A stretch of DNA of 64,000 nucleotides from a virus (Duplodnaviria; Caudoviricetes). The stretch is taken from positions 33,102-97,101 of IMG/VR virus record IMGVR_UViG_3300050514_000135; one strand, given 5' to 3'. Under the pieces are notes generated by a model, which made no database searches, was not told the DNA's origin, and saw only the letters and a program-made list of their open reading frames with translations. Positions 10,858 through 49,331 of the stretch are shown here, in pieces (within the stretch, counting starts at the first letter, position 1; each line of letters begins with the position of its first letter). Both the position numbers and the translations under genes were made by a program.

Positions 10858-10860
10858 GGC

Positions 10861-11786: not shown

Positions 11787-11795
11787 CTCGTTCCT

Positions 11796-15485: not shown

Positions 15486-15486
15486 C

Positions 15487-30056: not shown

Positions 30057-30611
30057 GTGGTGGCGATCGTGATCGAGATCTCCCGCCGGTCCTTCCTGCT
30101 CGGCACGGCGTCGCTGATCCCTAGTCGGGGAGTCGCCGCGCCGCCGGTCGACGGGACCGTGCTCATCGGCGACAGCCACGCCTACATGATGAACCGCGCC
30201 TTCCATGATGTCGCGCACGCCTACGACAGGCGCGTCGCGGTGGTCGCGCACGGCGGGTCGAGCGTGCGGCAGTGGCTCGTCAAGAAGTGGGTGCAGCGAG
30301 AGGTGCTCGCGAAGTACCCGGACGCGACGCTGCTCCTGGTCTCGCTCGGCACGAACTGCACGCGCTCGGAGCGACCGCGCCTCGCGGACGACATCCGGCG
30401 CCTGGTGTCCGAGAGCGGCGTGAGCGTGTCGTGGCTCCTGCCCCCGCCGATGAAGTTCGACACGACGTACCTGCGCGACGCCGTCAAGCAAGTCACCGGC
30501 GTCTTCCCGATCGACCCAGGACCTCTCCCGATGCTGCGCGACAAGATCCACGCGACGCCGAAGGGCTACTACATGTGGGCGCAGACGATCGCCGACACGC
30601 TCTGGTCGTGA
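30057..30611 (+). CDS. SGNH/GDSL hydrolase with a Tat-like signal
   Basis: SRRSFL; IGDSHA, G, LGTN, DKIH blocks. Confidence 0.8.
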   Translation: MVAIVIEISRRSFLLGTASLIPSRGVAAPPVDGTVLIGDSHAYMMNRAFHDVAHAYDRRVAVVAHGGSSVRQWLVKKWVQREVLAKYPDATLLLVSLGTNCTRSERPRLADDIRRLVSESGVSVSWLLPPPMKFDTTYLRDAVKQVTGVFPIDPGPLPMLRDKIHATPKGYYMWAQTIADTLWS

Positions 30612-30612: not shown

Positions 30613-30783
30613 TCACGTCAAAGGGCGAGCCCAGAACACGCCGGCGTCGTCGACCGCGACCTCGTACTTCTTCTGCTCGTGATTCACGAAGCCCAGCCAG
30701 CGCACCTTCCCTGTCGGGCGCTGGGGTTCATCGGGGCCCGGCTCGTGCGGGCCCTCGTGACTGCCGTTACCGTAGAGCAGCAC
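30613..30783 (-). CDS. 56-aa hypothetical protein containing VRWLG (missing from the ORF track)
   Basis: Manual translation from the GTG just after the 30786 stop: MLLYGNG...GKVRWLGFVNHEQKKYEVAVDDAGVFWARPLT. Confidence 0.45.
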   Translation of the reverse strand: MLLYGNGSHEGPHEPGPDEPQRPTGKVRWLGFVNHEQKKYEVAVDDAGVFWARPLT

Positions 30784-33896: not shown

Positions 33897-34136
33897 TCAT
33901 TCCTCTTGCTTTTTCGCGGGGATGCGGATCTGACCGGTGACGCGGCGGGCGCGCTCGAGGTCGTAGGCGAGGCCCTTGAGCTCCTCCTCGAACGGCGTGA
34001 TGGGTCCTGCCTGCCACGGTTTCTTCTCAGCCCACGCGACGACGGCGTCGACTATCGCGCCCTCGGCGCGTCGGATTAGCTCGGACTTTGGGTCGCTCAC
34101 GCGTAACAAGATAGGCGCCGCCGGCGAGCCCGGCAA
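33897..34136 (-). CDS. Hypothetical protein (start probably near 34100)
   Basis: Plausible helical ORF; overlaps the 3' end of the upstream gene. Confidence 0.4.
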   Translation of the reverse strand: MPGSPAAPILLRVSDPKSELIRRAEGAIVDAVVAWAEKKPWQAGPITPFEEELKGLAYDLERARRVTGQIRIPAKKQEE

Positions 34137-34851
34137 TCACGCCGAGCGTCAGAAGCGGCGACGTGCCGCTGGCTGCCCCACTGCTGACCGACGCGCCCGA
34201 CAGCCAGGGCAGGACGTGCGCCTCGCTGACCGGCGCGAGGAGCTTGCCCAGCGACTGGTGCGGGTACTCCGCGTCCTTGTAGCGGTAGTACCAGAGCGCT
34301 CCCTGGTTGAAGACGCCCTCGCCCGGCTTCGGCATCGGAGGGACGGCGCTCGCGGCCGGCAGATCGATCAGGCCGGCGGGCTTGAGCACGGCCTCGCGGA
34401 AGGCGTAGTCGCCGTTCATGTGCGAGTCGGTGGAGCCCTTGTCGCTCGTCACACTCACGAGATTGAACTTGCCCGCCGCGGCGTCCTTCGCCGCCTTCTG
34501 GTAGCCGGTGTAACCGGAGCCGAACGTCGAGTCCATGAGCACGACGCCGGCGACGTCGCCGCGGTCCGCGTCGTTGTTGAGAAGAGGGCTTACGAACCCG
34601 AGGCCCGCCGAGTAGCTCACGAAGACGAGCTTGCCGTCGATGCCGTACTTCTTGCGGATGTTGGGCGTGACGCGGCCGGAGCCGTCCTTGAACGAGCTGT
34701 AGAAGTTCGCGTACGCCGTCGAGCAGTACTTGTCCTCGCCGCCGCACACGAACCCGAGCGAGGCGGGGTCGAGCCCCACGAGCTTCGTGCCGGCGGGCCA
34801 AGCGACCTTCGAGGGAGGCGTCGCCTTCAGGAACAGCACGCCGTCGGTCAT
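34027..34851 (-). CDS. Tail-anchored alpha/beta-hydrolase-fold protein
   Basis: VSYSAG elbow, VVLMDS, PHQ; C-terminal TM then VRANP and poly-Arg. Confidence 0.65.
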   Translation of the reverse strand: MTDGVLFLKATPPSKVAWPAGTKLVGLDPASLGFVCGGEDKYCSTAYANFYSSFKDGSGRVTPNIRKKYGIDGKLVFVSYSAGLGFVSPLLNNDADRGDVAGVVLMDSTFGSGYTGYQKAAKDAAAGKFNLVSVTSDKGSTDSHMNGDYAFREAVLKPAGLIDLPAASAVPPMPKPGEGVFNQGALWYYRYKDAEYPHQSLGKLLAPVSEAHVLPWLSGASVSSGAASGTSPLLTLGVIAGLAGGAYLVTRERPKVRANPTRRGRDSRRRRRVG

Positions 34852-35474
34852 CGAGCACCCGGCTTCACTCGCACGGTCGCCCACACGATCCCGACGCCGA
34901 CGGCGACGATCGCTAGTCCCGAGAGTATGCCCATGCCCGAACCTCCCGGCCCCGTCGCGCCCGCACCGGCGAAAGCCTTCTCCAGGTACTCCTGCCTGAC
35001 CTTCACGCACTGCTCGTACGTGACGCCGCTCGGGCAGACCGAGGTCGGCACGGCCTGCGCGCCGTTGAACCCGAAGTGGTAGTGGCCCATGTCGCCGCAC
35101 GCGCCGAATTGCTTCCAGCGCCCGCCCCACACGCCGCCTTGCGATTCCCACCACTCGCCGAGCTTCGTGTGCGTCTCGCACGTGTTCGGGATGAGGTCGA
35201 GGTCGATCGCGTGACCGAGCGTGTGCATCGAGCGGCAGAAGTCCGCCTGCGAATAGCCGAGGTCGACCTGCTCCTGCTGCGCCGAGCACGTGCGACCTAC
35301 GGAACGGATCTTCGGCGACCAGCCGTGCGCGGTGGCGTACGCGATCAGCGCCTCGACCTTGGGTCGCACCGCGGGCACGAGGTCGTCGAGCGTCTTGGTC
35401 GGCTGGAAGAGTTCGACCGTCGCCGCTCCGAGCCACTGCACTCGCGCGCCGCGCTTCACCCACTGCACGCTCAT
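34848..35474 (-). CDS. Tail-anchored M15-family peptidoglycan peptidase with WLG leader
   Basis: GRT...Q, SMHTLGHAIDL, WGGRW...DMGHYH; leader MSVQWVKRGARVQWLGA; C-terminal TM. Confidence 0.82.
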   Translation of the reverse strand: MSVQWVKRGARVQWLGAATVELFQPTKTLDDLVPAVRPKVEALIAYATAHGWSPKIRSVGRTCSAQQEQVDLGYSQADFCRSMHTLGHAIDLDLIPNTCETHTKLGEWWESQGGVWGGRWKQFGACGDMGHYHFGFNGAQAVPTSVCPSGVTYEQCVKVRQEYLEKAFAGAGATGPGGSGMGILSGLAIVAVGVGIVWATVRVKPGAR

Positions 35475-36472
35475 AGGAGGAAGTACCAGACTGCGGCAGC
35501 AACCGCGGCGAGGCCCCCGACAACGACGACCGGCGACGTCCCGGAACCGGAGGACGAGCTCGACCCGCCGAACAACTGGTCCGAGAGGTCGGGCACGCCC
35601 GGGACGAGGTTCCCCTTCGGCCACTTCACGGTCGCGTTCAGCTTGTCCATGTACGCCTTGGCGAGCGTCGTGGGAGCGTTGGTGGGGCAGCTGAGCTGCG
35701 GCTCGTTCGTCGGCGCGCCGCGGATGAAGTACTCGCAGTCCTTCTTCAGCTTGAACTTCTGGAACGCGATCTCGTCCTGCCCGACCGCGGACCAGTCGAT
35801 CGGCTCGCCCGGCGCGGCGACCGGGCCGATGTAGCCGTTGTAGTAGACCGCGTAGTTGTAGTCGGTGCAGGTGAACTTCGAGTTGACGACGCCGATGTTC
35901 TTCGCCGCGCCGCACTCCTTGATAGACGTCGGCGTGAGCGTCTGCTCGCCCGCGGCGTCGTAGCTCTCCTTCGACTCGAGGTACCGCACCTGCCTCGGTG
36001 CCCAGCGCGAGTTCACGGGCGCCGGCGGACAGCCCGCCGCGGTCAGCGAGGCGTCGCTCGCGAGTCCCTTCGTGATCGCGAGGTCGCGCATCGTGAGGTA
36101 GGCGCGCACCGAATAGATCGCCCGGGCCGAGACCTTGGCCTTCGCCCCGACCGAGGACATCGTGTCGACGACGAGGTCCTCCATCGTGGAGCCGTGCGCG
36201 ACCGGGATCTTGCTACCGATCCACTCGCCGATGATCCCACCGATGATCCCGCAACCGACCGCGACTGCGGGGCCGGCCGCCGCGCACAGTCCAGCACCGG
36301 CGATCGTGCCGCCGACCTTGCCGTACGCCTTGAGAGACTCCTCGTCGATCGCGCCGCGCCGCGCGATGACCTCCTTCGTGAGCGCGTTGTTCTCGAGCTT
36401 GTCGTAGCCCGTGTATGCGCCGACGCGCCCGAGCCAGAGCACGCGCCGCGGCCTCACCCACTCGACGTTCAT
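35471..36472 (-). CDS. Membrane protein with WLG leader and glycine-zipper
   Basis: MNVEWVRPRRVLWLG; GxxxG zipper; C-terminal TM. Confidence 0.7.
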   Translation of the reverse strand: MNVEWVRPRRVLWLGRVGAYTGYDKLENNALTKEVIARRGAIDEESLKAYGKVGGTIAGAGLCAAAGPAVAVGCGIIGGIIGEWIGSKIPVAHGSTMEDLVVDTMSSVGAKAKVSARAIYSVRAYLTMRDLAITKGLASDASLTAAGCPPAPVNSRWAPRQVRYLESKESYDAAGEQTLTPTSIKECGAAKNIGVVNSKFTCTDYNYAVYYNGYIGPVAAPGEPIDWSAVGQDEIAFQKFKLKKDCEYFIRGAPTNEPQLSCPTNAPTTLAKAYMDKLNATVKWPKGNLVPGVPDLSDQLFGGSSSSSGSGTSPVVVVGGLAAVAAAVWYFLL

Positions 36473-37044
36473 GTCACCCACCAAGCGACTCCGACGATCG
36501 CGGCGATCAAGAGCAGGGGAGCGATCGACTGCTTGGCGCCGGTCGCGATCGTCGGCGGATTGAGCTGCTCCTTGATAGACGCGGCCCAGGTCTTGTAGCC
36601 GTCACCGGTCGGGTGGATGCCGTCATCCTTGGCGACGGTCGGCTGGTCGATCGTGCGCGCGTTCGCGGCGATGACCGCCGCGATGAGCTCGGGGTACTCC
36701 CACGGGAGCTTTCCCGGCATGAGCCAGACGACCTCAGCGCCGGAGCCGCGGATCTTCACCGCGAGCTCGTTGACCTGCGCCTTCAGCGTCGCCGCGGGTA
36801 CCTTCCCCTTCGTGTCGTTGCTGCCCAGCGAGACCAGCACGCGCTTAGGGGTCAGCGCGAGCGCCGTCGCGAGGTCGGCGGACGCGAGCCACTGCGCGAC
36901 CGTCGTCCCGGTCTTGGCGAACGCCTGGAAGGGCTCCGGCGCCAGCGCCTCCTTCAAGGGCACGGCGAGGCCCACGGCGAGCGAGTCCCCGATGAGCACC
37001 GTGGGCTTGTCCCCGACGGCCCCGAGCCACTGCACGCGCGCCAT
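36469..37044 (-). CDS. Tail-anchored SGNH hydrolase with WLG leader
   Basis: MARVQWLG; IGDSLA, SLGSND, DGIHPT; C-terminal TM. Confidence 0.82.
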   Translation of the reverse strand: MARVQWLGAVGDKPTVLIGDSLAVGLAVPLKEALAPEPFQAFAKTGTTVAQWLASADLATALALTPKRVLVSLGSNDTKGKVPAATLKAQVNELAVKIRGSGAEVVWLMPGKLPWEYPELIAAVIAANARTIDQPTVAKDDGIHPTGDGYKTWAASIKEQLNPPTIATGAKQSIAPLLLIAAIVGVAWWVT

Positions 37045-37748
37045 CAGATCCACCCCAGGAGGTACGCCGCGCCGCCGACCGCGAAGGCACCGAGCGCGAG
37101 CGTGCCGAGTCCGGGTCCCGAGCTCGCGGACGAGCTCAGCGGGTTCGCTCCGAGCCAAGCGGCCGCGGCGTTGCTGTAGCCGAACGCGCGACCCGGGTAG
37201 TCGGCGGAGACGCCGCCGGTCGAGCAGTCCGCGATCACGTTCCACCGATTAGGCGCTGTGCACTTGCTGCTGGTGCCGCACTTCACGCTGCCGGCGTTGT
37301 ACGCGATCACGGTCTTGATCGGGTTGCCGCCGTACTTGGTCATGAGTTCCGACAGCAGCTTCGCGCCGAGGTCGACGTTCAGCGCCGGGTCACTGAGGAG
37401 CTCGTTGACGGACACCTTCCTCCCCGCCTGGTCGCTCGCGGTAGCGGGCAGGAGCCCCATGAGTCCGTAGCAGCACGACGAGTGCGCGTCTTGCTTCCCG
37501 CCGCTCTCGGTCGCCATCACGCCGTCGACGAACTGCGGCCAGAGCTTGTACTTGGCCGCCGCGGCGTCGACGATGGCGCGCCACTGCTTCACCTCCTCGG
37601 GGAGCTTCAGGGCCTTCGCGCCCTCGTTCTCGATCTCGATGAGGCCCTCTGGTGTCCAGCGAGCTCGCGGGCCGCTGCAGCCGGACTCGAACCACTGCGC
37701 CGGCGTCGAGACGGCGCCGAGTCCGAGCATGTAGTCGAGCGGGTGCAT
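37044..37748 (-). CDS. Tail-anchored SLT lytic transglycosylase with HPLDY tag
   Basis: MATESGG, GLMGL, NVDLGAKLL, AYNAG; N-terminal MHPLDYMLGLG; C-terminal TM. Confidence 0.88.
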   Translation of the reverse strand: MHPLDYMLGLGAVSTPAQWFESGCSGPRARWTPEGLIEIENEGAKALKLPEEVKQWRAIVDAAAAKYKLWPQFVDGVMATESGGKQDAHSSCCYGLMGLLPATASDQAGRKVSVNELLSDPALNVDLGAKLLSELMTKYGGNPIKTVIAYNAGSVKCGTSSKCTAPNRWNVIADCSTGGVSADYPGRAFGYSNAAAAWLGANPLSSSASSGPGLGTLALGAFAVGGAAYLLGWI

Positions 37749-37752
37749 CGCA

Positions 37753-38430
37753 TTATCGTTTGAACTTGAGAACCATGCCGGGCGACTGGTAGCGAGCCTT
37801 CGCTTTCGCTTCCTCGCGACTGTGCGCGCGGACGTAACCGTCGATCGCGCCGACGTCATCGTAGTAGCGGTAGAGCGGCGCCCCGACACCCCAGTATCGA
37901 CCGCGGCGGTCGTAGCCTCCTTGATTAAGAGGCACGCGTTCGAGGTAGATGTCGAACTGCGGCTCGCCAGCGTTCTCTTGCAACGCCGCGCCGCTCCCTC
38001 CGAGCAGGATGAGGAACAGGCCGACGACGAGCGCTCCGCCCACGACGTAGACCATGCTGTCGCCGGACTCGGAAGAAGAGGACGGCACCGCCCCCGGCTT
38101 AGCGGGAGGGGGGGTTCCGGGAGACGAGGACGGTGCCGAAGTCGGGGGCGCGAGCCAGCCAGGCGGCGGCTTCAACGGCCAGTCCCAGCCCGCCGGGTAG
38201 CCTGGCGGGCGCGGCGGAGGCCACGGTTGCCCCGTCAAGGACCAACCGAAGGGCGGGTCCTTCGGGAAGTCGCCGGTCGGCAACCACTGCATTCCCGTGA
38301 GGTCCCAGAACGGCGGCTTCGGTGGTGGCCACGGACCGGTCCAGCCGGGTGGGGCCGGAGCCGCGGGCAGAACTTGGCCTAGCGTGCCACGCACGCGCTC
38401 GTCGATCGGCTTGCTCCACTCCACCTTCAC
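37753..38430 (-). CDS. Pro/Trp-rich membrane protein with a C-terminal small domain
   Basis: MKVEWSKP..GTLGQ leader; PPGW repeats; TM; LQEN then GGYD..GRYWG.GAPLY domain. Confidence 0.7.
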   Translation of the reverse strand: MKVEWSKPIDERVRGTLGQVLPAAPAPPGWTGPWPPPKPPFWDLTGMQWLPTGDFPKDPPFGWSLTGQPWPPPRPPGYPAGWDWPLKPPPGWLAPPTSAPSSSPGTPPPAKPGAVPSSSSESGDSMVYVVGGALVVGLFLILLGGSGAALQENAGEPQFDIYLERVPLNQGGYDRRGRYWGVGAPLYRYYDDVGAIDGYVRAHSREEAKAKARYQSPGMVLKFKR

Positions 38431-38433
38431 GGC

Positions 38434-39183
38434 TCAGCGCTTCCTGCGACGCTTGCGCGGCCTACCCATGCCGGCCGTCGCACCGACGCCGACGTAGAAG
38501 TTCTCCTGCAGCTTCGGGGCGCCCAAGAACAGGGCAGCGCCGATTCCGACCACGATGAGGCCGCCGATGACCAGCGGCAGCGTGTTCGACGACGTGTCCG
38601 TCGCCGGTGTCGTCGGCGCCTGGTTAGGTGTGACGCGCACGTCGGCCGGGTTGACTGGCGGCTGAGGTCCGCCGCACTGCGCGATGCAATTGACCAGGTT
38701 GAAGACGTAACCGGGCGAGTTCGGCGGCACGCCTGTCGCCTGGAGGCAAGTGTCGACGCACGCCTGCGAGCCGGCGGGAACCTGGGGCAGGCCGGGGATC
38801 TGCGGCGGTGTTCCGGGTAGCGGTGCTGAACCACCGAACGGTGGAAACTGCCCTGGCTGCACGAAGCCCTTCGCCCACGCCTCGAGCGCGGCGACCTGAC
38901 CGGTCGTCGGCGTGTCCGCCGGCAATTGCTTGAACGTCACGGGTTGCCCATTGAGCGCCGTCCAGTAATCGACGAAGGCGTCCATCATGGCTTGGTCGCG
39001 TGCGGACCAATAACCCGTCAGGTCCTGCGAAGTGCCGTAGTCGGTGACCGGCACGTTGCCGTACAGGTTCTTCCACGACAGCAAGAGAGCCTTCGCCTTG
39101 AGCTGCAGCGCCGGCACCTCGCCGAGTCGCGAGACCGCGCCGAGCCACGAGACTTTCTTCTTGGATACCCACTGAACTTGCAT
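38434..39183 (-). CDS. Tail-anchored membrane protein with WLG leader
   Basis: MQVQWVSKKKVSWLG..RLG; Cys hairpin; TM; LQEN; RPRKRRRKR tail. Confidence 0.75.
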   Translation of the reverse strand: MQVQWVSKKKVSWLGAVSRLGEVPALQLKAKALLLSWKNLYGNVPVTDYGTSQDLTGYWSARDQAMMDAFVDYWTALNGQPVTFKQLPADTPTTGQVAALEAWAKGFVQPGQFPPFGGSAPLPGTPPQIPGLPQVPAGSQACVDTCLQATGVPPNSPGYVFNLVNCIAQCGGPQPPVNPADVRVTPNQAPTTPATDTSSNTLPLVIGGLIVVGIGAALFLGAPKLQENFYVGVGATAGMGRPRKRRRKR

Positions 39184-39187
39184 CGGC

Positions 39188-40087
39188 TTACCTTCCGGTC
39201 ATGACCGTGGTCTGGGCGACGTAGCGCTGGCCGGTCTTCCAGACGTTCACTTCGGACCCGTCGATGTGGCGCTTGCCCACGTACATGTAGCGCGCGTTGG
39301 CGGGCGTGATCATGACAATGTCCCACGGCTCGCTGGAGCTGTTGCGCCAGTTCTTGCCGCGATAGGCGTAGGCGTACCCGGACTTCGGGTGCGGCGGGTT
39401 AGCCTGCAGCATCGGCGATGCCTTGCTCAGGAGCAGCGCACCGACGGCCAGCGCCGCGATCCCGCCGGCGATGTAGAGACCGGTGTTCGACGACGCGCTC
39501 TCCGCGGGCGGCGACGTGGGCGGGGGCGTCACCGGCGGCGGCGTCACGGGAGGAGGTGTTACCGGCGGTGGGATGATGACCGGAGGGACGATGATCGGCG
39601 GCGGTGCCTGTCCAGCACAGAGCGACAAGCACGTGGCGAGGTTCACCGGGTCCAAAGCGTACTTCTGCTGGCAGTTCTGCGCGCAGATCACCGGGTCAGG
39701 ACTCGGCCCGGGATTCGGGTTGATCCCCTTGCTGACGGCCCAGTTCTGCAGCGCCTGCAGGTGCGGCGCGTCGGGGGGAGCGGCGACGGTCCCGCCCTCG
39801 CCAGCGACGCCCGTCGCGAGGTGTGGCGGCTTGCCTCCGCTGTTCCACCAGACGCTGAACGACTCGAGCGTCGCGCCGTCGCGGATCTTGGTGAACGGTG
39901 GAAGGAAGTCCCCGGGCTTCGTCCCGTAGTCCTGGAACGCCGCCGACTGATTCCCCTCGCCCTGCGCCCACGCGGAGAGCAGGGTCTTGATCTGGACCAT
40001 CTCCGCCTCGGTCGCGCCGAGCGTGCCGGGCACGCGGCCGAGCCACTGCGTCCTCGGTTCTCGCTTCACCCACTGCACTTGCGTCAT
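39188..40087 (-). CDS. Membrane protein with WLG leader, paralog of 38434..39183
   Basis: MTQVQWVKREPRTQWLGRVPGTLG; DYGT..D shared; PPVTPP repeats; TM; LQANP plus small domain. Confidence 0.75.
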   Translation of the reverse strand: MTQVQWVKREPRTQWLGRVPGTLGATEAEMVQIKTLLSAWAQGEGNQSAAFQDYGTKPGDFLPPFTKIRDGATLESFSVWWNSGGKPPHLATGVAGEGGTVAAPPDAPHLQALQNWAVSKGINPNPGPSPDPVICAQNCQQKYALDPVNLATCLSLCAGQAPPPIIVPPVIIPPPVTPPPVTPPPVTPPPTSPPAESASSNTGLYIAGGIAALAVGALLLSKASPMLQANPPHPKSGYAYAYRGKNWRNSSSEPWDIVMITPANARYMYVGKRHIDGSEVNVWKTGQRYVAQTTVMTGR

Positions 40088-40362
40088 GACTTCTTCTTTC
40101 CGTTCTCGTAGAGCGCCCACGCTAGCACGAACGCCTCGATGCTCGCCGCGCCGGCCAGTGAGTACTTGATCAGGTTCGGGCCTCTCAGCCCCACTACGTA
40201 CATGCCCACACCGACGAGCGCCGCGCGCATCGCCGTGTGGAAGATCATCACCGGGATAGCTGAGACGTCGCCAGCGACGAGCGCCTCGGCGCTCTCGCCC
40301 GAGGGGAGACCGGCGAGCGTGCTCGGCGCGCGCATCGGTTTGACCCAGGTGACGGCAGACAC
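40084..40362 (-). CDS. Small two-TM membrane protein
   Basis: MSAVTWVKP leader; two hydrophobic helices. Confidence 0.7.
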   Translation of the reverse strand: MSAVTWVKPMRAPSTLAGLPSGESAEALVAGDVSAIPVMIFHTAMRAALVGVGMYVVGLRGPNLIKYSLAGAASIEAFVLAWALYENGKKKS

Positions 40363-40363
40363 C

Positions 40364-40555
40364 TCACAACCTCCCCGTCTTCAGCGAGCCTACAGCTTTC
40401 ACCCCTCCGTAGATCGCCAGAGCTAGCAAGCCGAGCAGGAAGAGCGTCGGGACAACGCCCGACGTCTCGACAGCCGCCGAGGCGCCGAGCGTGTCAGGCA
40501 CGCGGCCTAGCCACTCGACCCGCTGCGTCCTCTGCTTGACCCAAGTGACCCTCAC
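40364..40555 (-). CDS. Minimal leader + TM protein
   Basis: MRVTWVKQRTQRVEWLGRVPDTLG, then a TM only. Confidence 0.7.
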   Translation of the reverse strand: MRVTWVKQRTQRVEWLGRVPDTLGASAAVETSGVVPTLFLLGLLALAIYGGVKAVGSLKTGRL

Positions 40556-40929
40556 CGGAGCCCTCCTCCTGCGATGAACCCGAGCGCGAGCGCGGCCACA
40601 CCTACGCCGAGCAGCAACGCGATCGAGTTGTCACCAGAACTCCCGGCAGACGCCGAGCAGAACGGCATCTTCTCGATCTCCTTGTCGAGCTGCATCGAGA
40701 CTGGGTCGGTCTTGTCCGGCCCAAACAGTTCCAAGATCCGCGCGCAGTTCGGGTACGCGGTGACGATCCCTTTTTCGACGCAGTTGTCGAACTCGCTGGT
40801 GTAGCAGGGCGGGAAGTACGACACAGCTTCTTTGAAGCGCTCGTCGTTGGTCAGACCAAGGCGCCCGCTCGGCAGCTTACCCAGCCACTGAACACCGTGA
40901 GCACTCTGCTTGACCCAAGTGACCCGCAC
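40552..40929 (-). CDS. Tail-anchored Cys-rich protein with WLG leader
   Basis: MRVTWVKQSAHGVQWLGKLPSGRLG; 4 Cys; C-terminal TM. Confidence 0.72.
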   Translation of the reverse strand: MRVTWVKQSAHGVQWLGKLPSGRLGLTNDERFKEAVSYFPPCYTSEFDNCVEKGIVTAYPNCARILELFGPDKTDPVSMQLDKEIEKMPFCSASAGSSGDNSIALLLGVGVAALALGFIAGGGLR

Positions 40930-40944
40930 TTAGCCTCCTCCGCC

Positions 40945-42147
40945 TCAGGCGGCGTACCGACCGCGCTTCTTGTGCCGGCGGCGCTTCGGGTTCTGCTGGA
41001 GACGACCCGCGGCGGACTTCGGCAGCTTCGGGGGCTTCCCGAAGAACGCGAACGCGCCGAGCGCGAGACCGGCGAGCGCGAGCGCTCCGACGCCGCCGAG
41101 GCCGGTCGACGTCGACGAGACGGCGGGGTTGGCGACGCAGTCACCCGTAGCGTTGCGGGTGTAGTTCGCCGGGCACTTGTCAACGCACTTGCCGTTCACG
41201 CAATCCTGCGTAGGCGAGCAGCCAGCGTTGTCGGTGCAACCGGGTGCGGGGCCGGGCGTGCCGGTCTTGCAGTCCGGATTGAACGCGCTCTTCGACTGGT
41301 CGATGCTCCCGCACTGGGCCGGGACGGCGACGGACCCGTCGAGGTAAGTCTGCACGTAGATCGCCGCCGCGCAGGTCGTGGGACCGAGCTTGCCGTCCGC
41401 GCCGATCGGGCAGATCTTCTGCGTCGCGAGCGCAGCGTTGATCTTGGCCTGCAGCGCACCGACGTTCGTCGGTGACCCGCCCTCGAGCGCCGCTTGCGCC
41501 AGGCACGTGGGGTCACAGGCGACGACGCAAGCGTCAAACGCCGCGGGGTTGTTTTGATTCTGCGCCGTGCACTTCTGCGCGCACATGTTGTAGCAAGACT
41601 TGTAGGTGATCGTATCGTGCAAGTCGCCTTGCCCGAGTCGACCGGTTCGTCCGATCCATTGCACGCGCCGCGCGCCGAAGATCGGGTGGAACGGGGGCAT
41701 CGGCCGAGCCTGATTCGTCCACGTGATCGTGGTGGTACGTCCAAAGGGCACGATGAACGGCGTCTCGACGAACGGGAAGATCGACTGCCGGGTGTAGAAC
41801 GGGATGGGCACCGTCGCCACGGGCTCGGGCGGCGGCGGGACCATCGCGCCGACCTGGTACGTGACGCCGCCGTCGTACGTGCAGTAGCTCGTGCCGGGGC
41901 CGTAGTACTGGTACGCCTTCTTGTAGACGCCGCACGTGACGTAGCTCGCGCCGTAGGTCTGGCCGAGACTCAGGAGCTGGTTCACGCCCTGCTGGTGAGT
42001 GATCCACCCGGGCGGCGTGTAGGCGTACACGACCGATCCGTTGCCGAACTTCTCGCGCACGGTGAACGTCCACGACTCGGCGTCGTACGGTTGACCGAGT
42101 CGGCCTTGCTTTCCGGCCATCGGTTTGGTCCAGTTCACGTGCTTCAT
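40945..42147 (-). CDS. Cys-rich tail-anchored protein with two leader copies and a PG-binding-like motif
   Basis: MKHVNWTKP..GRLGQ and internal RVQWIGRTGRLGQ; VGALQAKIN...ADGKLGPTT; EGF-like Cys; TM; LQQNPKRRRHKKR. Confidence 0.72.
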   Translation of the reverse strand: MKHVNWTKPMAGKQGRLGQPYDAESWTFTVREKFGNGSVVYAYTPPGWITHQQGVNQLLSLGQTYGASYVTCGVYKKAYQYYGPGTSYCTYDGGVTYQVGAMVPPPPEPVATVPIPFYTRQSIFPFVETPFIVPFGRTTTITWTNQARPMPPFHPIFGARRVQWIGRTGRLGQGDLHDTITYKSCYNMCAQKCTAQNQNNPAAFDACVVACDPTCLAQAALEGGSPTNVGALQAKINAALATQKICPIGADGKLGPTTCAAAIYVQTYLDGSVAVPAQCGSIDQSKSAFNPDCKTGTPGPAPGCTDNAGCSPTQDCVNGKCVDKCPANYTRNATGDCVANPAVSSTSTGLGGVGALALAGLALGAFAFFGKPPKLPKSAAGRLQQNPKRRRHKKRGRYAA

Positions 42148-43025
42148 GTAAACAATCTCCTGTCCGAGTTTTGAAACAGTTTGCCAGACCGGGTCGGCAG
42201 CTGACTGCAGTCGGGCCAGAGCTCGACGGTGAGCGCGCCGGCGACGCGACCGTAGTGGGCCGTGGTCGGGAACATGAAGAGGAACCGGTCCTCCTGCGCG
42301 ATTGCGCCGAGGTCCGTGGGCGGCGTCACGCTGCAGATGTCCGCGGGGTCGAACTGGTTGACGCTCGCGTAGAGCACCACGCGTCCGGGGCCGTAGACCG
42401 GGATGTACGTCTCGAAGTCGCGGTTGTCGCGCCACGTGCCCAGCATGCCGAGCCCCGGCTCGAGGGGCATGCCGCTGTTCGGTGGCACGTACGGGACGAG
42501 CGGCGGGCGGTAGAGCAGCGCGGTGTCGTTCCCCTCGAACGAGACGTCGCGCCCGCCGCCCATGCTCGCGTCGCTGAAGCGGTTCCCGGCCTGGCCGAGG
42601 AGCTGGTGGCGGAGGTGCCACGAGATGTTGCCGCCCGGCGGCTGCCAGAACGGCTCGCGGATCAAGATCTCGAACGGCCGCCCGGGGCAGTCGGGGTTCG
42701 CGCCCGTGAGGAGGCCGGCGAGCGTCTGCGCCGTGTGCACGGCACGCACGACGATCGCGCCATGGTTCGGGATGTCGACGACGACGAGCCGGAACAGGTA
42801 CCGGTGGTACTGGTCCGTGGTCGGGGCGAGCGGCACCTCGATGCCCGTCGAGCTCATGTCGCCGACGTACGGGGACGAACCGACCGCGATGTTGCGCAGT
42901 TGGAACGCGCTCGACACCACGTCGAGCAGCACCGGGCAGCCGCAGAGCCAGTGCCGGTGGTCAGCGCCTACGTGCGCGATCTCGGTCTGTGCTGCGGTTG
43001 CGGGTCCGATCTTCTCAAGTTCCAT
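42144..43025 (-). CDS. Beta-rich putative virion structural protein
   Basis: No TM; alternating beta patterns; follows the candidate capsid genes. Confidence 0.55.
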   Translation of the reverse strand: MELEKIGPATAAQTEIAHVGADHRHWLCGCPVLLDVVSSAFQLRNIAVGSSPYVGDMSSTGIEVPLAPTTDQYHRYLFRLVVVDIPNHGAIVVRAVHTAQTLAGLLTGANPDCPGRPFEILIREPFWQPPGGNISWHLRHQLLGQAGNRFSDASMGGGRDVSFEGNDTALLYRPPLVPYVPPNSGMPLEPGLGMLGTWRDNRDFETYIPVYGPGRVVLYASVNQFDPADICSVTPPTDLGAIAQEDRFLFMFPTTAHYGRVAGALTVELWPDCSQLPTRSGKLFQNSDRRLFT

Positions 43026-43041
43026 CCGTCACACCCTTCGC

Positions 43042-43662
43042 TCAGGGCGGACAGATGCCCTTTTCCTTGAGGACCGCGAGCGCGTCCTGGATCGAGATCT
43101 GCGCGTAGCAGTTGCTGCGCGGGAGACGCATGACGTGGAGGCTGACGATGACCTCGGTCGGGATCTCGTCGGGGTCGACGAGGGCGCGGGTGTTCGTGAA
43201 GGTGGCGATGGCCGACGCCCCGCACGTGAGCACGAGGCCCACCGGGCAGACGCAGCTGAACGCCTCCTCGAAGTTGCCGAGCGGGGTCGGGTCGCTGGAG
43301 ATGACGAAGTTGCACCACGTGCGGATCTGCAGCGTGATGTCGATGTCCGGGTTCTGCGCGTATGCGGTGTTCGCGATGTCGCGGAGAGGGTTGCCGGGAA
43401 AGTAGTTCGGCCGGCGGACGGTCGCCTGGACGTCCTTCAACCAGACGTCGACCTCGGCGAGCTCCTCGAACTTGACGGGCAAGGGTTGGTTGGCGGTCGC
43501 GCTCGTGAACGAGGCGCGGAGGTTCAAGATCTCCCAACCGCCGATCGCGCTCGAGACGATGCCGCGCGCGCTCGCTCCGGAGTACAGGAGCGTCGCAGCG
43601 AGCTTCGGATCGAACTCCGCAATCTCGCCCAACGTGAACTGGCGGGGGGCTGTCTTTCGCAC
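43042..43662 (-). CDS. Beta-rich putative minor capsid protein (jelly-roll candidate)
   Basis: GTG at 43662 after GAGG; beta-strand pattern ending EVIVSLHVMRL. Confidence 0.5.
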   Translation of the reverse strand: MRKTAPRQFTLGEIAEFDPKLAATLLYSGASARGIVSSAIGGWEILNLRASFTSATANQPLPVKFEELAEVDVWLKDVQATVRRPNYFPGNPLRDIANTAYAQNPDIDITLQIRTWCNFVISSDPTPLGNFEEAFSCVCPVGLVLTCGASAIATFTNTRALVDPDEIPTEVIVSLHVMRLPRSNCYAQISIQDALAVLKEKGICPP

Positions 43663-43704
43663 TGTGACCTCGAATCCAAAAGAGAGTGAGTGAAGAGGCG
43701 GTGC

Positions 43705-43734
43705 GGGGTGCCCGAGCGTGAGCCCGAGCACCCC
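43705..43734 (-). terminator. Stem-loop terminator/attenuator after the candidate major capsid gene
   Basis: Minus-strand RNA GGGGUGCUCGGGC-UCAC-GCUCGGGCACCCC, a 13-bp stem whose two mismatches are G-U pairs only on the minus strand; pyrimidine-rich tail follows. Confidence 0.7.
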
Positions 43735-43749
43735 TCGCCGTTAGTCCGA

Positions 43750-44961
43750 TCACTCGTCGGGGTTGACGGTCGCCTTGCGGTTCTCGAGCAGGATCTTGAG
43801 GTTCTCCTTGCCCTGCTTGGTGAGGCCCGAGAGGTGGGCCGTACCCTTGAGCGCGCTCTGCTGGAGCAGGCCCTGGATGTAGCTCGACTCGAGCAACATC
43901 TGGAACTGCAGCGAGTCCGGGTAGACGTAGTTCAGGTAGTCGATGCACGCGCTCGGGAAGAGCTCGACTCCGAACAGGCCCACGCCGAACGAGAAGCACC
44001 CGCCGGGGATGGTGTACGCCGACGAGTAGCCGACGCCGCACGCGGTGTCCTCGGTCAGGATGCCCGGCGCCGGAGACGGGATGGTCTCCAGGTCGAGCAC
44101 GCCCTCGCGACGCATCGCTTCGAGGAAGCAGCAGTCCTGCTCGACGCGCGACAGCCCGATGCGGATCGTGGTCGTCGGGACGTAGAGCAGCGGGCGCTGG
44201 AAGCAGTACATCTTGTGCCCGAGGCCGGTTCCGGTGAAGTGCCCGTAGGTGTTGCCGGCAGTCGGTGCACCGATGCACTCGGTGCCCGCGTCGCCGACGA
44301 CGACGTTCTGCGGGATGAAGAGCCGATCGTAGCCCTTGTCGTGCAACACGCTGTTCGTCGCGATGACGTACTTCTGCGCGGCCGCGAGCGAGTCGCCCGC
44401 ACCGCCGAAGACGTTGGGCTTCGGCCAGACGCCGATGTGGCTCGCGAGCTCGTCGACGACGACGATGCGGCGGCCCATGCGGATCTGCAGGCGATACGCC
44501 TGGACGAAGTTCTCGCCGAAGATCTGCCCGGGACCACCCCAGTCGAGCGCCGCATTGCGCGCGGCAGCGTCGCCGGCGAGTCCGCCGACAGGAACGCAAC
44601 CGTCGAAGCACGGCGTGGCCGAACCCGCGTCGGGCTCGGTGACCAGCGCGCCGGGGAGCGCGAACTGGCGACCCTCAGCGATGAAGGTCAAGAACGCGCC
44701 GAGGGCCAAGAACGGCGTCTCGACGCGCGCGCCGGTGAAGGCGCCGGTGATCTGACGACCGGGACAGGCTTCCGCCTCGGTGTCGACGTTGAAGAACTGG
44801 AGGCCCGCCTCGAACCGAGCGAACTCGGCCGGGGTGAGTGGCATCTTCAACTGGGTCTGGTCGCTGATGATCGCCGTGATGGCGGTCCACGGGAGGTTCA
44901 CTGCCTCGCCGATGCTCGAGACCTTCTTCCAGGCTTGTGCGTTGTTGGTGACGTTGGCCAT
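43750..44961 (-). CDS. Candidate major capsid protein (non-HK97, possibly jelly-roll)
   Basis: 403 aa, no TM, beta-rich; strong purine-rich RBS GGAAGGAAAAAGAGAG, A-rich upstream leader and downstream hairpin suggest high expression. Confidence 0.5.
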   Translation of the reverse strand: MANVTNNAQAWKKVSSIGEAVNLPWTAITAIISDQTQLKMPLTPAEFARFEAGLQFFNVDTEAEACPGRQITGAFTGARVETPFLALGAFLTFIAEGRQFALPGALVTEPDAGSATPCFDGCVPVGGLAGDAAARNAALDWGGPGQIFGENFVQAYRLQIRMGRRIVVVDELASHIGVWPKPNVFGGAGDSLAAAQKYVIATNSVLHDKGYDRLFIPQNVVVGDAGTECIGAPTAGNTYGHFTGTGLGHKMYCFQRPLLYVPTTTIRIGLSRVEQDCCFLEAMRREGVLDLETIPSPAPGILTEDTACGVGYSSAYTIPGGCFSFGVGLFGVELFPSACIDYLNYVYPDSLQFQMLLESSYIQGLLQQSALKGTAHLSGLTKQGKENLKILLENRKATVNPDE

Positions 44962-45053
44962 GTTCTCTCTTTTTCCTTCCGACCGACCGCGGGTCATCCG
45001 CTCCGGCCGCTCAAACAAACTTTGGTTTCGGGGTTAGTTTTTTCTGTCGTGGT

Positions 45054-46913
45054 TTACTGGCGATTCGCTCCGGAGAACTCCAGCGACCGGCGCGTCATGT
45101 CGTCCATGTTGCCGTTCGAGCGAGCTCCGGCGATGACCGCGGGCGGTGCCGCCTGCGGGACAGTCGGCTGCACGTCGGTGAACACCTCGACCGGCACGGG
45201 ACCGGCACCCGGCATGAGCGGCTGCACGCCCGAGTATCCGGGCGGAGGCAGCGCGTTCGTCACCGGGACGCCAGTCGGCGGTTGCTTCTCGATCACGAGG
45301 CACACTCCGTAGGGGAGCATGACCGCGTTGCCGGGTTGCCAGTACGAGCTCGGGTCCCCGCCGCCGTTCATGGCGCTGATGGCGTCGATGCTGACGCCTC
45401 CAGCAGCCGCGAGAGCGCTGAGGTCCTCGCCCGCCTGGACGACGTGACGACACTCGGTGTTGTTGTTGTACTTGGCGCAGTTCGGGCAGAGCGTCTCGCA
45501 GTTCGAGTAGCAGCCGTTGAAGCCACCGCACTCCGTGCAGTTGCCCAAGCGACCGGTGTTGACGAACGTGCGAGCTTGCTGACCCGGACGGCCGACGCCG
45601 TTCGCGTCGCCGAGCTGGTAGATCGATCCGCCACCGGCGCCCATCGGCGACTGGATGACGGGCGGAGTCTGCTGGCCCGGAGCGAGCTGCGGGATGAAGG
45701 GGCGCGTGGCGAAGAGCTTCGCGACGTTCTCCTGGATGTACGCCTGCTCCATCGGGTAGGCGCGGTTTCCGAAAGTGGCCTTGCCCGCGTCCGCCGCGTT
45801 GACCTTGAAGATCGCCGGGGCTGCGTACCAGTCCCAGAGCATCTTCAGGCCGTTCGCGCCGAAGCCGACGGCGACGCCGCCGAGCACCCACGGGATGAGC
45901 CCGCGGCCGCGCGTGAAGTACGTGCCGGCCATGCCAGCCGCGGCTCCACCGAGCTGCGTGGCGAGGCGCCAAGCGTCCGGCTTCATGCGGTAGGCTGCCG
46001 CCGCGTCCTTGCCGTAGTACGGGTTCGTCCCGTCCTTCGGCTTGCGCGTCGCGACGAGGCGGTCGGCGACGTCAGCGGCCGTGAGGCCGATGAACACCGC
46101 GATGGCCGCGACGCCGTACGCCCGGATCGAGCTCATGCTGAATGCTCCGTCGGCGTTCTCGTAGAGCACCGGAGCGTGACCCGACACGAGTCCGAGCCCG
46201 ATGGGGTTCTCCTGCATCATGCGCCGGCGACCCCCGCCCTTCCGCTTGTGCCGGCGGCGTCGAGTGACCTCGACGACCTGCACCTGGGCGGCCTTGGCCG
46301 CGGGGAGACGAACGATGTGAGTCTTGGCGACGGTCGAGCGACGGCTGCGACGACGCTTCTTCGCGTGGCTGCGCTTCTTGCCGTGACTGCGCCGTTTCGC
46401 CTTCTTCGTGTGCTTGCGCTTCCGGCGGCGTTTCGCGCCGCCCGCTCCCATAGCCATGGCCATGAGCGGAGTCATGCGACGAGACCGCTTAGCCCTGCGC
46501 TTGGCCTTCCGCTTGCCCTTCTTGCCCTTACGCTTGCGCTTCTTGGAGGGGTTTTCCGAAAGTGCCATTTGTTCTTGCTCCTCATTCTCCTCGTACCGGT
46601 GACCCCGGCCACGATTCTCTGAAAGTTTGGGGTTCGCGGTCAACTCTTGCCGGCGTGCCGGTCGTTTCTTCATCTTCGAGATCTTGCCGATGTTCGACGT
46701 GCCGTACTTGCTCTTGAGCGCCGAACGCATCTTCTTGAACGCCGCGATCTGCGCCGCTGAGCGCTTCTTCTTCCGGGGATTGTCCTTCAACACTTTGGCC
46801 ACCGGGTTCTCCTCAATCACAGGCGCGTGCGACGCACGCGGAGTTTTTTTCTTCAAGTAGTCGGCGAGACGTTTCTGAAAACGCAGCGCGGTCTTGGTCG
46901 GCTCGTGCATCAT
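45054..46913 (-). CDS. Arg/Lys-rich core-like membrane protein with NP repeats and a LysM domain
   Basis: Poly-basic tracts separated by EENP/KDNP/TANP/SENP/QENP; about 3 TMs; Cys cluster; LysM HVVQAGEDLSALA...VSIDAISAMN...QPGNAVMLP. Confidence 0.75.
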   Translation of the reverse strand: MMHEPTKTALRFQKRLADYLKKKTPRASHAPVIEENPVAKVLKDNPRKKKRSAAQIAAFKKMRSALKSKYGTSNIGKISKMKKRPARRQELTANPKLSENRGRGHRYEENEEQEQMALSENPSKKRKRKGKKGKRKAKRRAKRSRRMTPLMAMAMGAGGAKRRRKRKHTKKAKRRSHGKKRSHAKKRRRSRRSTVAKTHIVRLPAAKAAQVQVVEVTRRRRHKRKGGGRRRMMQENPIGLGLVSGHAPVLYENADGAFSMSSIRAYGVAAIAVFIGLTAADVADRLVATRKPKDGTNPYYGKDAAAAYRMKPDAWRLATQLGGAAAGMAGTYFTRGRGLIPWVLGGVAVGFGANGLKMLWDWYAAPAIFKVNAADAGKATFGNRAYPMEQAYIQENVAKLFATRPFIPQLAPGQQTPPVIQSPMGAGGGSIYQLGDANGVGRPGQQARTFVNTGRLGNCTECGGFNGCYSNCETLCPNCAKYNNNTECRHVVQAGEDLSALAAAGGVSIDAISAMNGGGDPSSYWQPGNAVMLPYGVCLVIEKQPPTGVPVTNALPPPGYSGVQPLMPGAGPVPVEVFTDVQPTVPQAAPPAVIAGARSNGNMDDMTRRSLEFSGANRQ

Positions 46914-47452
46914 GGCGAAACAAAGCCTCGGCTGTCAACGACGCATCCTGACGGGAGCGGCATGCGCCACGCGAGTGGTGTCCCTTGACCGGTGACCAAC
47001 AGGTCAACCGGATGAGAGAACTCGTGCTCGTAAAACCCTCGTGCATGTCCCGCGCGTCGGTAGCGAATGAAAGCGACCTTGCCGACACGATGCCACGAGC
47101 CTTTTGGAATGTCGATACGACCGATCGGCAAGGGCTGACCGTTGCCGAAGTACACGCGCGCGTCCTGCAGCACAACTGGTGACACTTGTGCACGCGACGT
47201 GCGCCCGCGCTTGTCGCGAACGATGTGCATGTCGCAGCGACTGAGCAGGCGCCCCTCCGTGTCGTGAACCAGCACGAATTCCGGCGGAATCTTGATGTCG
47301 CTCGGCATCCCGTAGTAGTCGAGTTTATGCCTGCCGACGCGCCTCACTTGCTCGACGCTCACGAACTCGAGGTGGGTCGAGCGCACGAGCAGCGAGCCGG
47401 TCTTGCAGTAGCCGGTGTTGCAGACTGTCGCTTGTGCAATTCGGGACGTCAT
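46910..47452 (-). CDS. Hypothetical protein (start possibly 47308, MPSDIK)
   Basis: IRY...YEHEF...RGF pattern; coupled to the downstream gene. Confidence 0.6.
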   Translation of the reverse strand: MTSRIAQATVCNTGYCKTGSLLVRSTHLEFVSVEQVRRVGRHKLDYYGMPSDIKIPPEFVLVHDTEGRLLSRCDMHIVRDKRGRTSRAQVSPVVLQDARVYFGNGQPLPIGRIDIPKGSWHRVGKVAFIRYRRAGHARGFYEHEFSHPVDLLVTGQGTPLAWRMPLPSGCVVDSRGFVSP

Positions 47453-48321
47453 CAGGGTGTCGCCGAGGCTAGCGCGCGCTTCATCGACATCGACGAGCCC
47501 ACGAGGTAGAGGCCGAACCCGACCAGGCCGATGATGCCGACCGTCGCGATGAGCTTCGTGTAGTCGTTGACCGCCGGCGCTCCGGCGTTCTTCTCCGCGG
47601 CGGCGGCGAGCTTCACCGACTCAGCGCCGTCGAGCAGGGCCTTCGTCTGCGCGGCAGCCTGCTCGGGCGTGGCCTTGCCGCTCGTCACGAGCTCCGTCTG
47701 ATTGTTCGAGAGCGTGCGCAGCATCTTGTTCGTGGAGACCGTTGACGCGAGCGCGAACGACTCCTTGACGATCCCGTACGCGGCGAGCGCGATGAGCCCG
47801 TTACCGACGATGCCGCCGGCGATGAGGAGCGGCAGGATGCCGACTGTTCCTGAACCGTGCGCGGTGTTGCCCGACGTCGCGTCGAGGAGCACGGGCTTGC
47901 CGCCCACCACGCCCACGCGCATCGCGTCGGTCGGCAACGCCTCGACCACGAAATCTTGAAGCTGATTGCTGTAGATCAACTTGCGCTTGTTCGCGAGCAC
48001 GTCGCTCGCGCCGTCGACCGCGATCTTGCCCATCGCGACCAGGTCCACTGCCTGCTGGTCGAGGTCAGGACCCCAAGCTCCTGGATCGACTGCGCCGCCC
48101 TCGCCGCCGGTGCCGGACATGAACGGCAGCCCGAGGTCCTCGCGCACCTTCTTCAGTCCGAGATAGGACTTCACCATGGCGTCGCGCGACGCCTGCGTGC
48201 TGTCGCGCAGCGCGGTGATGAGCGCGGTCCAAGCGTCCAGGTTCGGGTCCGCCGGTTGCCCGAGCATGCGCTTCAGCGCGACGGGGATCTGCAGCGGGTT
48301 AGCCCATTTCGTCGTCGTCAT
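47452..48321 (-). CDS. Two-TM membrane protein
   Basis: MTTTKWANP...MLGQ; two hydrophobic helices. Confidence 0.7.
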   Translation of the reverse strand: MTTTKWANPLQIPVALKRMLGQPADPNLDAWTALITALRDSTQASRDAMVKSYLGLKKVREDLGLPFMSGTGGEGGAVDPGAWGPDLDQQAVDLVAMGKIAVDGASDVLANKRKLIYSNQLQDFVVEALPTDAMRVGVVGGKPVLLDATSGNTAHGSGTVGILPLLIAGGIVGNGLIALAAYGIVKESFALASTVSTNKMLRTLSNNQTELVTSGKATPEQAAAQTKALLDGAESVKLAAAAEKNAGAPAVNDYTKLIATVGIIGLVGFGLYLVGSSMSMKRALASATP

Positions 48322-49238
48322 TGGGTAGTCCTCATCTTCGACATGCGATCGTAGAGGTTCAGACCGAGCGTCGCCGCGCTGATCGCGAGTCCCCCGATCA
48401 AGATCTTCTCGAGCGTCGTGAAGTGCTCGCTCTTCTGCGCTGCCTCGCGCTCCTGCTCGGTCTGCGTCTGCCCCAGCCACTGCATGCGAGGCTTGGTCCA
48501 GACGACCGGCTTCGGTTTCGTCTCCCAGATCACCCTGGTGGTGAGCCCCGCGGTGCTGGTAGGCGGGGCTCCGACGCCGACGAAGATCCCGCGGTCGACG
48601 AAGTTGTGCTGTTCGGGATTGAACTGTGTCTGCGCGCCGCTGAAGCAGGCGTGCGCGTCGCACAGCACCTTGATGTTCGGCACGCTGACGACACGCTCGC
48701 GCTGGAACGGCACGCACTCACCGAGTCGGAGCTCGGACAGGCTCGGGTCCGCGTAGTTCCACTTGTCGTTGAACCAGACGACGCAGAGCACGTGCTCGAT
48801 GACGTCGCCGCCGTACCCGTGACCTACGATCGCCACGTGCATTCCGACGGAACCGAACGCCGACGCGCAGAGCACGAGCAGTCCGTCGCAGTCGTCGCCC
48901 TTCAGGCACGGGATCTCGTTGCCGAGCTCGTCGTGGTGGGGCTTCGCCGGGTCGCAAGCGAGTAGATGCGCCTTGGGGATGTATTCCGCGTTGATCGGGT
49001 CAGGCACCCAGAGCTTGGTCTGCGCGGCCTTCAAGATCACGCGCGCCCGCGCCGACGGCGAGTCGACGGCCTGCCCCAGGTTCCTCGCCTCGTCGAGGCG
49101 GTCGATCGCCCAGCTCCGCACGTAGGCGTTGCTCATCCCCTCCGCGACGAACTCGGCCACGCGGTCGAGCGAGGTGCGCGTACCCTGCTCTCCGTACGGG
49201 TGCGACCTCACGTCGGAGACGAACGGGCGCGGCGGCAT
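48318..49238 (-). CDS. Transglutaminase-like Cys protease/transamidase, membrane-anchored
   Basis: GDDCDG (Cys), EHVLC (His), WNYADPS (Asp) triad; C-terminal VVWTKPRMQWLGQ followed by a TM. Confidence 0.78.
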   Translation of the reverse strand: MPPRPFVSDVRSHPYGEQGTRTSLDRVAEFVAEGMSNAYVRSWAIDRLDEARNLGQAVDSPSARARVILKAAQTKLWVPDPINAEYIPKAHLLACDPAKPHHDELGNEIPCLKGDDCDGLLVLCASAFGSVGMHVAIVGHGYGGDVIEHVLCVVWFNDKWNYADPSLSELRLGECVPFQRERVVSVPNIKVLCDAHACFSGAQTQFNPEQHNFVDRGIFVGVGAPPTSTAGLTTRVIWETKPKPVVWTKPRMQWLGQTQTEQEREAAQKSEHFTTLEKILIGGLAISAATLGLNLYDRMSKMRTTQ

Positions 49239-49246
49239 CGCGAGTC

Positions 49247-49276
49247 AGTATGCCCTCGCCTCTCTCCCGCCTGCAA
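49247..49276 (-). promoter_or_regulatory. Promoter of the structural operon, leaderless
   Basis: TTGCAG (49276-49271), 18 bp, CATACT (49252-49247), 8 bp, ATG; same geometry as the 29.1-kb promoter. Confidence 0.6.
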
Positions 49277-49331
49277 CGTGTCGCGTTTCCGCTCACCGCT
49301 CGGCGCGTGCACTTTTAGGCACAGTTGTGAA

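Follow-up and report, generated by a model that had tools for sequence, protein, structure and literature searches.

The tagged gene block

The stretch of DNA considered here (the window, i.e. 64,000 nucleotides at positions 33,102 to 97,101 of IMG/VR record IMGVR_UViG_3300050514_000135) belongs to a virus recorded from rhizosphere metagenomes, with a GC content of 67%, and carries on its minus strand a block of genes (table 1) whose products share a short peptide, the tag. The tag is built from a hydrophobic-x-Trp-Leu/Val unit (the Trp unit), single or in tandem, and is usually closed by Leu-Gly (LG). It is found at the N-terminus of 11 gene products between 34848 and 48321 and internally in two proteins, namely at residues 162-172 of the product of 40945-42147 and at residues 236-256 of a transglutaminase-fold cysteine enzyme, whose gene heads the block. 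An earlier note, made from the letters of the window, had listed N-termini sharing this motif, all of which are present; it counted about 12 tagged proteins, against 11 N-terminal copies here, and the internal copy of 40945-42147 had been missed.

In six of the 11 tagged genes the start overlaps the stop codon upstream, and in another four it is 1-15 nt away, so that the gene starts are credible; the start of 47452-48321 overlaps the stop of the enzyme gene. The tag occurs in the first 20 residues of 11/18 gene products at 34000-49300 versus 0/136 elsewhere (Fisher p=1.6e-12, with a pattern chosen post hoc on this genome), and shuffling of residues yielded 0.09 matches on average and three at most in 20,000 shuffles. 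The relatives used for comparison include L-numbered loci and a whole genome of 77.6 kb (G002). In the latter, a looser pattern (a hydrophobic residue, then Trp, near the start), picked after those genes had been seen, is found in 8/12 anchored genes of the virion block versus 4/123 others (p=1e-7); the strict pattern of the window carries over only partly to other clades.

Tagged proteins lack a Sec or Tat signal (N-terminal h-region or twin Arg), and the hydropathy scan gives only C-terminal transmembrane (TM) helices, present in 10/11 of them, in agreement with the earlier note. Their cargoes comprise an M15 peptidase (below the cut-off), an SGNH esterase and domains of no known type; the description of the cargoes as unrelated holds for these, with the exception of 38434-39183 and 39188-40087, which are paralogues. 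The leader itself matches no Pfam or NCBIfam family, as had been anticipated. Among the 55 M15 homologues, the Trp unit is found in tandem copies in 17, and the residue closing the tag (P1) is Gly, Ala or Ser in 42/45. Pro directly follows only 1/74 LG-type sites, the commonest residue after LG being Gln (15-19/52), and Pro at the second position (P2′) is mildly enriched (6-10/52 versus a background of 6-7%), which is not decisive. The motif is better described as a short hydrophobic-x-W-hydrophobic unit that is repeated, together with an LG site of wider use, than as a single long leader. The tag system is real and apparently undescribed, no description of it or of this virus group having been found in the literature searched, the coverage of which is incomplete. 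Outside the block, a 56-amino acid (aa) open reading frame at 30613-30783 contains an internal VRWLG and no TM helix, possibly by chance.

Table 1. Features of the block and the integrase gene (window coordinates).
Feature	Position	Strand	Remarks
Tyrosine integrase	723..2300	+	
M15-like peptidase, two-unit tag, C-terminal TM	34848..35474	-	PF13539 E 3e-4, below cut-off; 55 homologues
333-aa tagged TM protein	35471..36472	-	orthologue fused behind enzyme in L027
SGNH esterase, one-unit tag, C-terminal TM	36469..37044	-	PF13472 E 2.6e-9
SLT lytic transglycosylase, C-terminal hydrophobic tail	37044..37748	-	PF01464 E 2e-19; variant start ending LGLG, without Trp
225-aa Pro/Trp-rich tagged TM protein	37753..38430	-	
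249-aa tagged TM protein	38434..39183	-	paralogue of 39188-40087
299-aa tagged TM protein	39188..40087	-	swappable module after xNP junction
92-aa hydrophobic protein	40084..40362	-	first tag unit only
63-aa protein	40364..40555	-	scarcely more than tag and TM
125-aa tagged TM protein	40552..40929	-	
400-aa Cys-rich tail-anchored protein	40945..42147	-	N-terminal tag
Internal tag copy of 400-aa protein	41632..41664	-	second copy, residues 162-172, at module junction
Conserved 293-aa protein	42144..43025	-	no N-terminal tag
Conserved 206-aa protein, candidate second capsid protein	43042..43662	-	LG at residues 11-12
403-aa candidate major capsid protein	43750..44961	-	IG at residues 17-18
Basic xNP-repeat core-like protein	45054..46913	-	hydrophobic segments; LG at two internal sites, followed by Cys cluster and weak LysM
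Conserved 180-aa protein	46910..47452	-	no leader
Conserved 289-aa tail-anchored protein	47452..48321	-	weak leader ending MLG; 18 homologous matches
Transglutaminase-fold cysteine enzyme	48318..49238	-	tag-bearing linker, C-terminal TM
Internal tag copy of enzyme	48471..48533	-	residues 236-256, between core and small TM module

Modularity of the tag

The switch of homology at the end of the tag was compared across ten clades, taking a single genome from each clade and leaving out paralogues. Over the first 12 residues, likeness was 19.4 between unrelated proteins of one genome versus 14.7 between orthologues (p=2e-8), the value also found for random pairs (14.7), whereas over the 25 residues after LG it was 27.3 between orthologues versus 14.3 within a genome. 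Permutation of labels gave p=0.0003. The likeness of leaders within a genome was missing in 3/10 genomes, each with few genes. Leaders go with the genome rather than with the cargo, orthologues being alike only behind LG, and these comparisons support LG as the boundary at which a conserved, putatively mature part begins; in distant clades, the homology of the 289-aa protein likewise begins at LG. Leaders also come in dialects, such as MxLxWLG in L020/L026, YxSLG in L012/L016 and FFxxLG in L042.

Modules are swapped at LG. In G002, for instance, a module resembling the start of the product of 37753-38430 is found behind an internal LG, and the tag is retained internally in 40945-42147 and in three fused M15 homologues. 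The nearest relatives of the SGNH esterase that are untagged carry an N-terminal signal anchor instead, and a second SGNH protein of the window itself (30057-30611, plus strand), 32% identical to the tagged one, has a Tat-like signal in place of both tag and tail anchor. The earlier proposal of a modular tag is thus supported, in that it acts at the protein level and has been grafted onto unrelated cargo; the grafting onto SGNH and M15 proteins is suggestive, though only that, of a loading of foreign proteins similar to that by the capsid targeting sequence of phage T4.

The same data bear on whether the tag might be a copied DNA cassette, spread by gene conversion or acting as a translation-coupling element, with no role at the protein level. 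This is hardly credible, even if the likeness of leaders within genomes and the overlap of gene starts with upstream stops would fit it: the Val, Leu and Gly codons of the window leaders differ synonymously, indicating that selection acts on the protein, W-L-G persists in many clades and at internal positions of proteins, and copying, which may well spread the tag, leaves its conservation unexplained.

A second motif, x-E/A/Q-N-P (xNP), follows TM helices at 34027-46913, with repeats in the product of 45054-46913, and marks a junction at which modules are swapped on the side of the TM helix opposite to LG; the last 80 residues of 39188-40087, for example, are found on the 289-aa protein in L016, L024 and L025. 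In L019, the small soluble genes of a run at 3129-6947 begin with an aromatic stretch ending in NP (e.g. W-Q-N-P), which looks like a tag for internal proteins.

The transglutaminase-fold enzyme

Judged by its modelled fold and by the order of its triad, the enzyme belongs to the transglutaminase-like cysteine superfamily, as the earlier note had read from the sequence. The AlphaFold model (predicted local distance difference test, pLDDT, 85.5) matches the putative protease 3kd4 (Z 11.4; 145 residues aligned, root mean square deviation 3.2), factor XIII (11.0), LapG (8.8) and PeiP (8.3), the top 37 rows of the fold search being mostly members of this superfamily. Comparison with 40 homologues shows Cys117, His149 and Asp164 to be invariant in 41/41, in the order Cys-His-Asp. 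No family was assigned by PHROGs, NCBIfam and PDB sequence searches, there was no Pfam match, and nothing came out of single-protein scans of IMG/VR or of tblastn of cultured phages.

Trp238 is retained behind a hydrophobic residue in 40/41 enzymes, among them soluble forms whose sequence stops shortly after it; the Trp unit accordingly suits docking rather than cutting. LG follows Trp238 in 25/26 enzymes fused to a downstream TM cargo versus 3/15 stand-alone forms. In many relatives the TM tail of the enzyme is a separate small gene bearing a leader, and in others another cargo is fused at this point; the internal motif of the enzyme is therefore a fusion junction.

The enzyme is a candidate maturation protease. 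That it is instead a true transglutaminase, cross-linking the Gln after LG to Lys of other virion proteins, seems improbable. Factor XIII and transglutaminases 2 and 3 score at Z 10-11 and Gln is the most frequent residue after LG, as such an activity would favour; about two thirds of the sites, however, have Ala, Glu, Leu or other residues there, and the related G-M/L-G sites of Salisaeta phage SSIP-1 (see below) are never followed by Gln. Furthermore, the characterized prokaryotic members of the fold, such as LapG and Pei, are hydrolases.

Two further features of the enzyme may be mentioned. An invariant G-x-F-V-G-V motif at residues 217-222, directly after the catalytic core, could be a structural or a self-processing site. 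An intein-like insertion lies just before the catalytic Cys in P0023, and similar ones are inferred from length or split matches in L024-L028; insertion at this point suggests that the enzyme gene is essential.

Capsid candidates and the kind of virus

Synteny is conserved in more than 10 loci, in the order enzyme, 289-aa, 180-aa, basic core-like, 403-aa, 206-aa and 293-aa proteins, followed by many tagged TM genes; at the far end of the block, the product of 34027-34851 has a TM helix and no leader. The 403-aa protein is likely to be the major capsid protein, of jelly-roll-like fold: its model (pLDDT 89.4; predicted template modelling score 0.85) is a beta sandwich with insertions, with weak matches, aligned mostly as one barrel, to the capsid proteins of SPV1, HHIV-2, P23-77 and PRD1 (best Z 5.9; Foldseek E 5e-3). 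Its top BFVD match is I1ZBH9 (211 aa, prob 0.97), which is suspected to come from SSIP-1. Models of the 206-aa and 293-aa proteins were of low confidence and their searches of structure atlases uninformative; from gene order, the latter is a possible vertex protein.

Hydrophobic-Gly closes a variable N-terminal extension in 42/61 homologues of the 403-aa protein versus a background of 28% (p=4e-11, relatedness ignored), and it is found near the start of the 206-aa protein in 11/11 close orthologues, again with variable sequence upstream. These LG-type sites mostly lack the Trp unit, and the capsid candidates have no membrane anchor. The presence of the site on both candidate capsid proteins is new here and goes beyond the earlier note.

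The block would be the particle-building operon of a large, tailless virus, probably with an internal membrane, whose layout is distantly related to that of SSIP-1. No Terminase_6N match was found in the circular genome of about 93 kb, nor was a packaging ATPase of the FtsK/A32 type (no Pox_A32 match and no fitting Walker A); the credible Walker A proteins of the genome are two, both helicase-like. A packaging ATPase is also absent from the Odin and FLiP groups (PMC5894146).

A proposed docking unit and cut site

The reading favoured here, which is held to be moderately probable, is that of a docking tag followed by a cut after a small residue by the viral enzyme, similar to maturation in T4 and adenovirus, both cleavage and binding being predicted. 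The Trp unit would dock the tail-anchored proteins, and the enzyme itself, at the site of assembly; Leu-Gly (sometimes Leu-Ala/Ser) would be cut by the enzyme acting as a cysteine protease, which, as the particle matures, would trim the leaders, the extensions at the N-termini of the capsid proteins, and fused polyproteins. The LG site would accordingly be common to capsid, core and membrane proteins, and the Trp unit to the anchored proteins plus the enzyme. All sites would share the face of the membrane on which the catalytic domain lies, while the basic tails and the xNP tails would face the genome. Several presumed virion proteins have variable N-terminal extensions that close with a common site, as would be expected of a maturation protease of the T4 gp21 or adenain type, and a hydrophobic P2, a small P1 and the near absence of a following Pro fit papain-fold specificity.

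Alternatively, the tag may only dock: the whole unit, LG included, would stay uncleaved and bind the capsid, a scaffold or the membrane surface, loading any protein fused to it, and the enzyme would have another substrate (e.g. the host wall or the xNP junctions). This is a serious rival, though rather unlikely; in its favour, W-L is more constant than G in M15 homologues, tandem copies would raise avidity, the Trp unit without LG is kept in stand-alone enzymes, dialects within genomes fit co-evolution with a binding partner, and the enzyme occurs where leaders are scarce. Docking by itself leaves unexplained, however, both the LG that closes the variable extensions of the capsid candidates and the sharp switch of homology at LG.

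Several observations weigh against the proposal of docking plus cutting. In 13/45 M15 homologues the Gly is replaced by A/S/D/T/E (mostly Ala or Ser), and both Trp unit and LG are missing ahead of the cargo in 7/55. The transglutaminase superfamily also takes in cross-linking and acyl-transfer enzymes. The LG behind fused enzymes may have been inherited from the leader of the fused gene and retained since, and about three changes of state on the tree suffice to account for the fusion and fission of the enzyme. The enzyme linker matches the leaders of its own genome only moderately (rank 1-5 of 12 for fused forms). The capsid assignment depends on weak fold matches, and several distant capsid homologues lack an LG-type site. 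As to the co-occurrence of tag and enzyme, which the earlier note had named as a check, the enzyme is present in each related locus of sufficient length (L039-41 and L043 being partial), but some distant relatives have the enzyme and few leaders, as in L045, where most TM proteins and both capsid candidates are without a clear LG leader.

More widely, and more tentatively, the data may be accommodated by an undescribed, widespread lineage of large viruses that infect bacteria and have no tail, cultured SSIP-1 being a remote member, in which a transglutaminase-fold protease and a genome-specific peptide code would load and mature the virion proteins: on one face of the membrane the Trp unit would dock and LG would be cut, with xNP on the other face, and any enzyme gaining both tag and tail anchor would be recruited. 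Maturation by proteolysis is known in tailed phages and in eukaryotic jelly-roll viruses, and a transglutaminase-fold maturation protease, if confirmed, would be an independent solution in prokaryotic jelly-roll viruses. The tag would then account for the gain and exchange of wall-degrading enzymes by such viruses, and a unit some seven residues long could serve as a tool to load proteins on membrane particles.

Comparison with known systems

One of the closest parallels is SSIP-1, a phage that contains a membrane and has two types of major capsid protein (PMC6356626). Its gp34, annotated as a structural protein and without a function in the literature searched, is a homologue of the enzyme (hhalign 96.9%, E 1.7e-10) with the same core-linker-TM layout and RGMG in the linker, so that the maturation claim can be tested directly in a cultured virus. 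Six SSIP-1 genes have G-L/M-G/A near their start, neighbours of gp34 also have xNP motifs, and the order of the core protein and three conserved genes is similar. SSIP-1 differs in that its leaders lack the Trp unit, its genome is of 44 kb rather than 93 kb, and its P-loop protein gp40 has no homologue in the circular genome. Capsid homology could not be demonstrated by sequence, the profile comparison of the 403-aa protein with gp45-47 not being significant. For gp34 there was also a weak match in Geoglobus pleomorphic virus 1, which was set aside because the enzyme profile did not recover it.

In T4 (capsid targeting sequence and prohead protease gp21) and SPN3US (gp245 propeptides), many virion proteins bear short N-terminal peptides that direct them to the prohead and are taken off by a viral protease, which also trims its own C-terminal part (PMC10052503, citing Mullaney and Black 1996). 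In its presumed way of working, the present system is most like these two and adenain. T4 and SPN3US, however, are tailed phages of the HK97 type, with serine proteases that cut after Glu and with soluble cargo. The cargo of the present system is tail-anchored, its enzyme is a cysteine enzyme of transglutaminase fold, and no Terminase_6N match was found.

Among jelly-roll viruses, the capsid and core precursors of adenovirus are cut by adenain at sites that contain Gly. An Ulp1-family protease (vUlp1) is found in polintons and virophages (PMC11161782). These systems likewise pair a cysteine protease with a jelly-roll virus; the Ulp1-type fold and its His-Asp/Glu-Cys order differ, however, from the transglutaminase fold and Cys-His-Asp order of the present enzyme, which is often membrane-anchored and whose host is presumably bacterial, and no Ulp1 or adenain entry is among its top fold matches. 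A 2018 survey of prokaryotic double jelly-roll viruses makes no mention of a protease (PMC5894146), and neither there nor in the literature searches was a maturation protease found to be reported for jelly-roll membrane viruses of prokaryotes. LapG (BTLCP) and PeiW/PeiP share fold and Cys-His-Asp triad with the enzyme, at 12% identity. The substrate of LapG is an adhesin and that of PeiW/PeiP pseudomurein.

Finally, double-glycine leaders and their C39 peptidases also combine an N-terminal peptide ending in Gly with a papain-like enzyme, an analogy drawn in the earlier note together with a possible role in export. They end in Gly-Gly, are strictly N-terminal and work with an ABC exporter, whereas the tag ends in Leu-Gly, internal copies are kept, and no ABC exporter, or transporter gene of any kind, was seen in the genome. 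A non-Sec export leader, carrying the N-terminal domain across the host membrane, is very improbable. The basic residues after the TM helix of most proteins, for which the positive-inside rule predicts N-out, and the mostly even Cys counts of the N-terminal domains do suggest an N-out topology, which docking plus cutting leaves unexplained, and the cargoes are wall enzymes; the conservation of the tag at internal positions, the leaderless SLT-plus-TM (lysozyme-like) proteins in L018, L041, L043 and L045, the LG on anchorless capsid candidates and the Tat-like signal of the second SGNH protein all speak against export, and the analogy is therefore given up.

Wider gene context

The source record is of 97,101 bp and its first 3.7 kb recur at its end, so that the genome is circular and of about 93.4 kb; the tyrosine integrase makes the virus probably temperate. 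Contigs from a run that is not marked as a possible source match 34000-49400 almost letter for letter, and one relative lies in a Gemmatimonadaceae metagenome-assembled genome, a weak hint at the host. Directly upstream of the enzyme gene, 49332-50936 encodes a Pro/Gln/Met-rich protein, conserved in most close relatives and a candidate scaffold that might be the partner of the Trp unit. A GroES-like gene lies at 27840-28130 (Cpn10 is also found in L002/L003), and 18627-27382 reads as a sugar-modification cluster, with apparent nucleotide-sugar dehydratases, methyltransferases and glycosyltransferases. A second virion-like gene block at 6591-18596 has shared motifs of its own, of the HP-x-D/N-F and S-L-H-S-x-L-G types, and starts resembling them are present in G002, L042 and L045.

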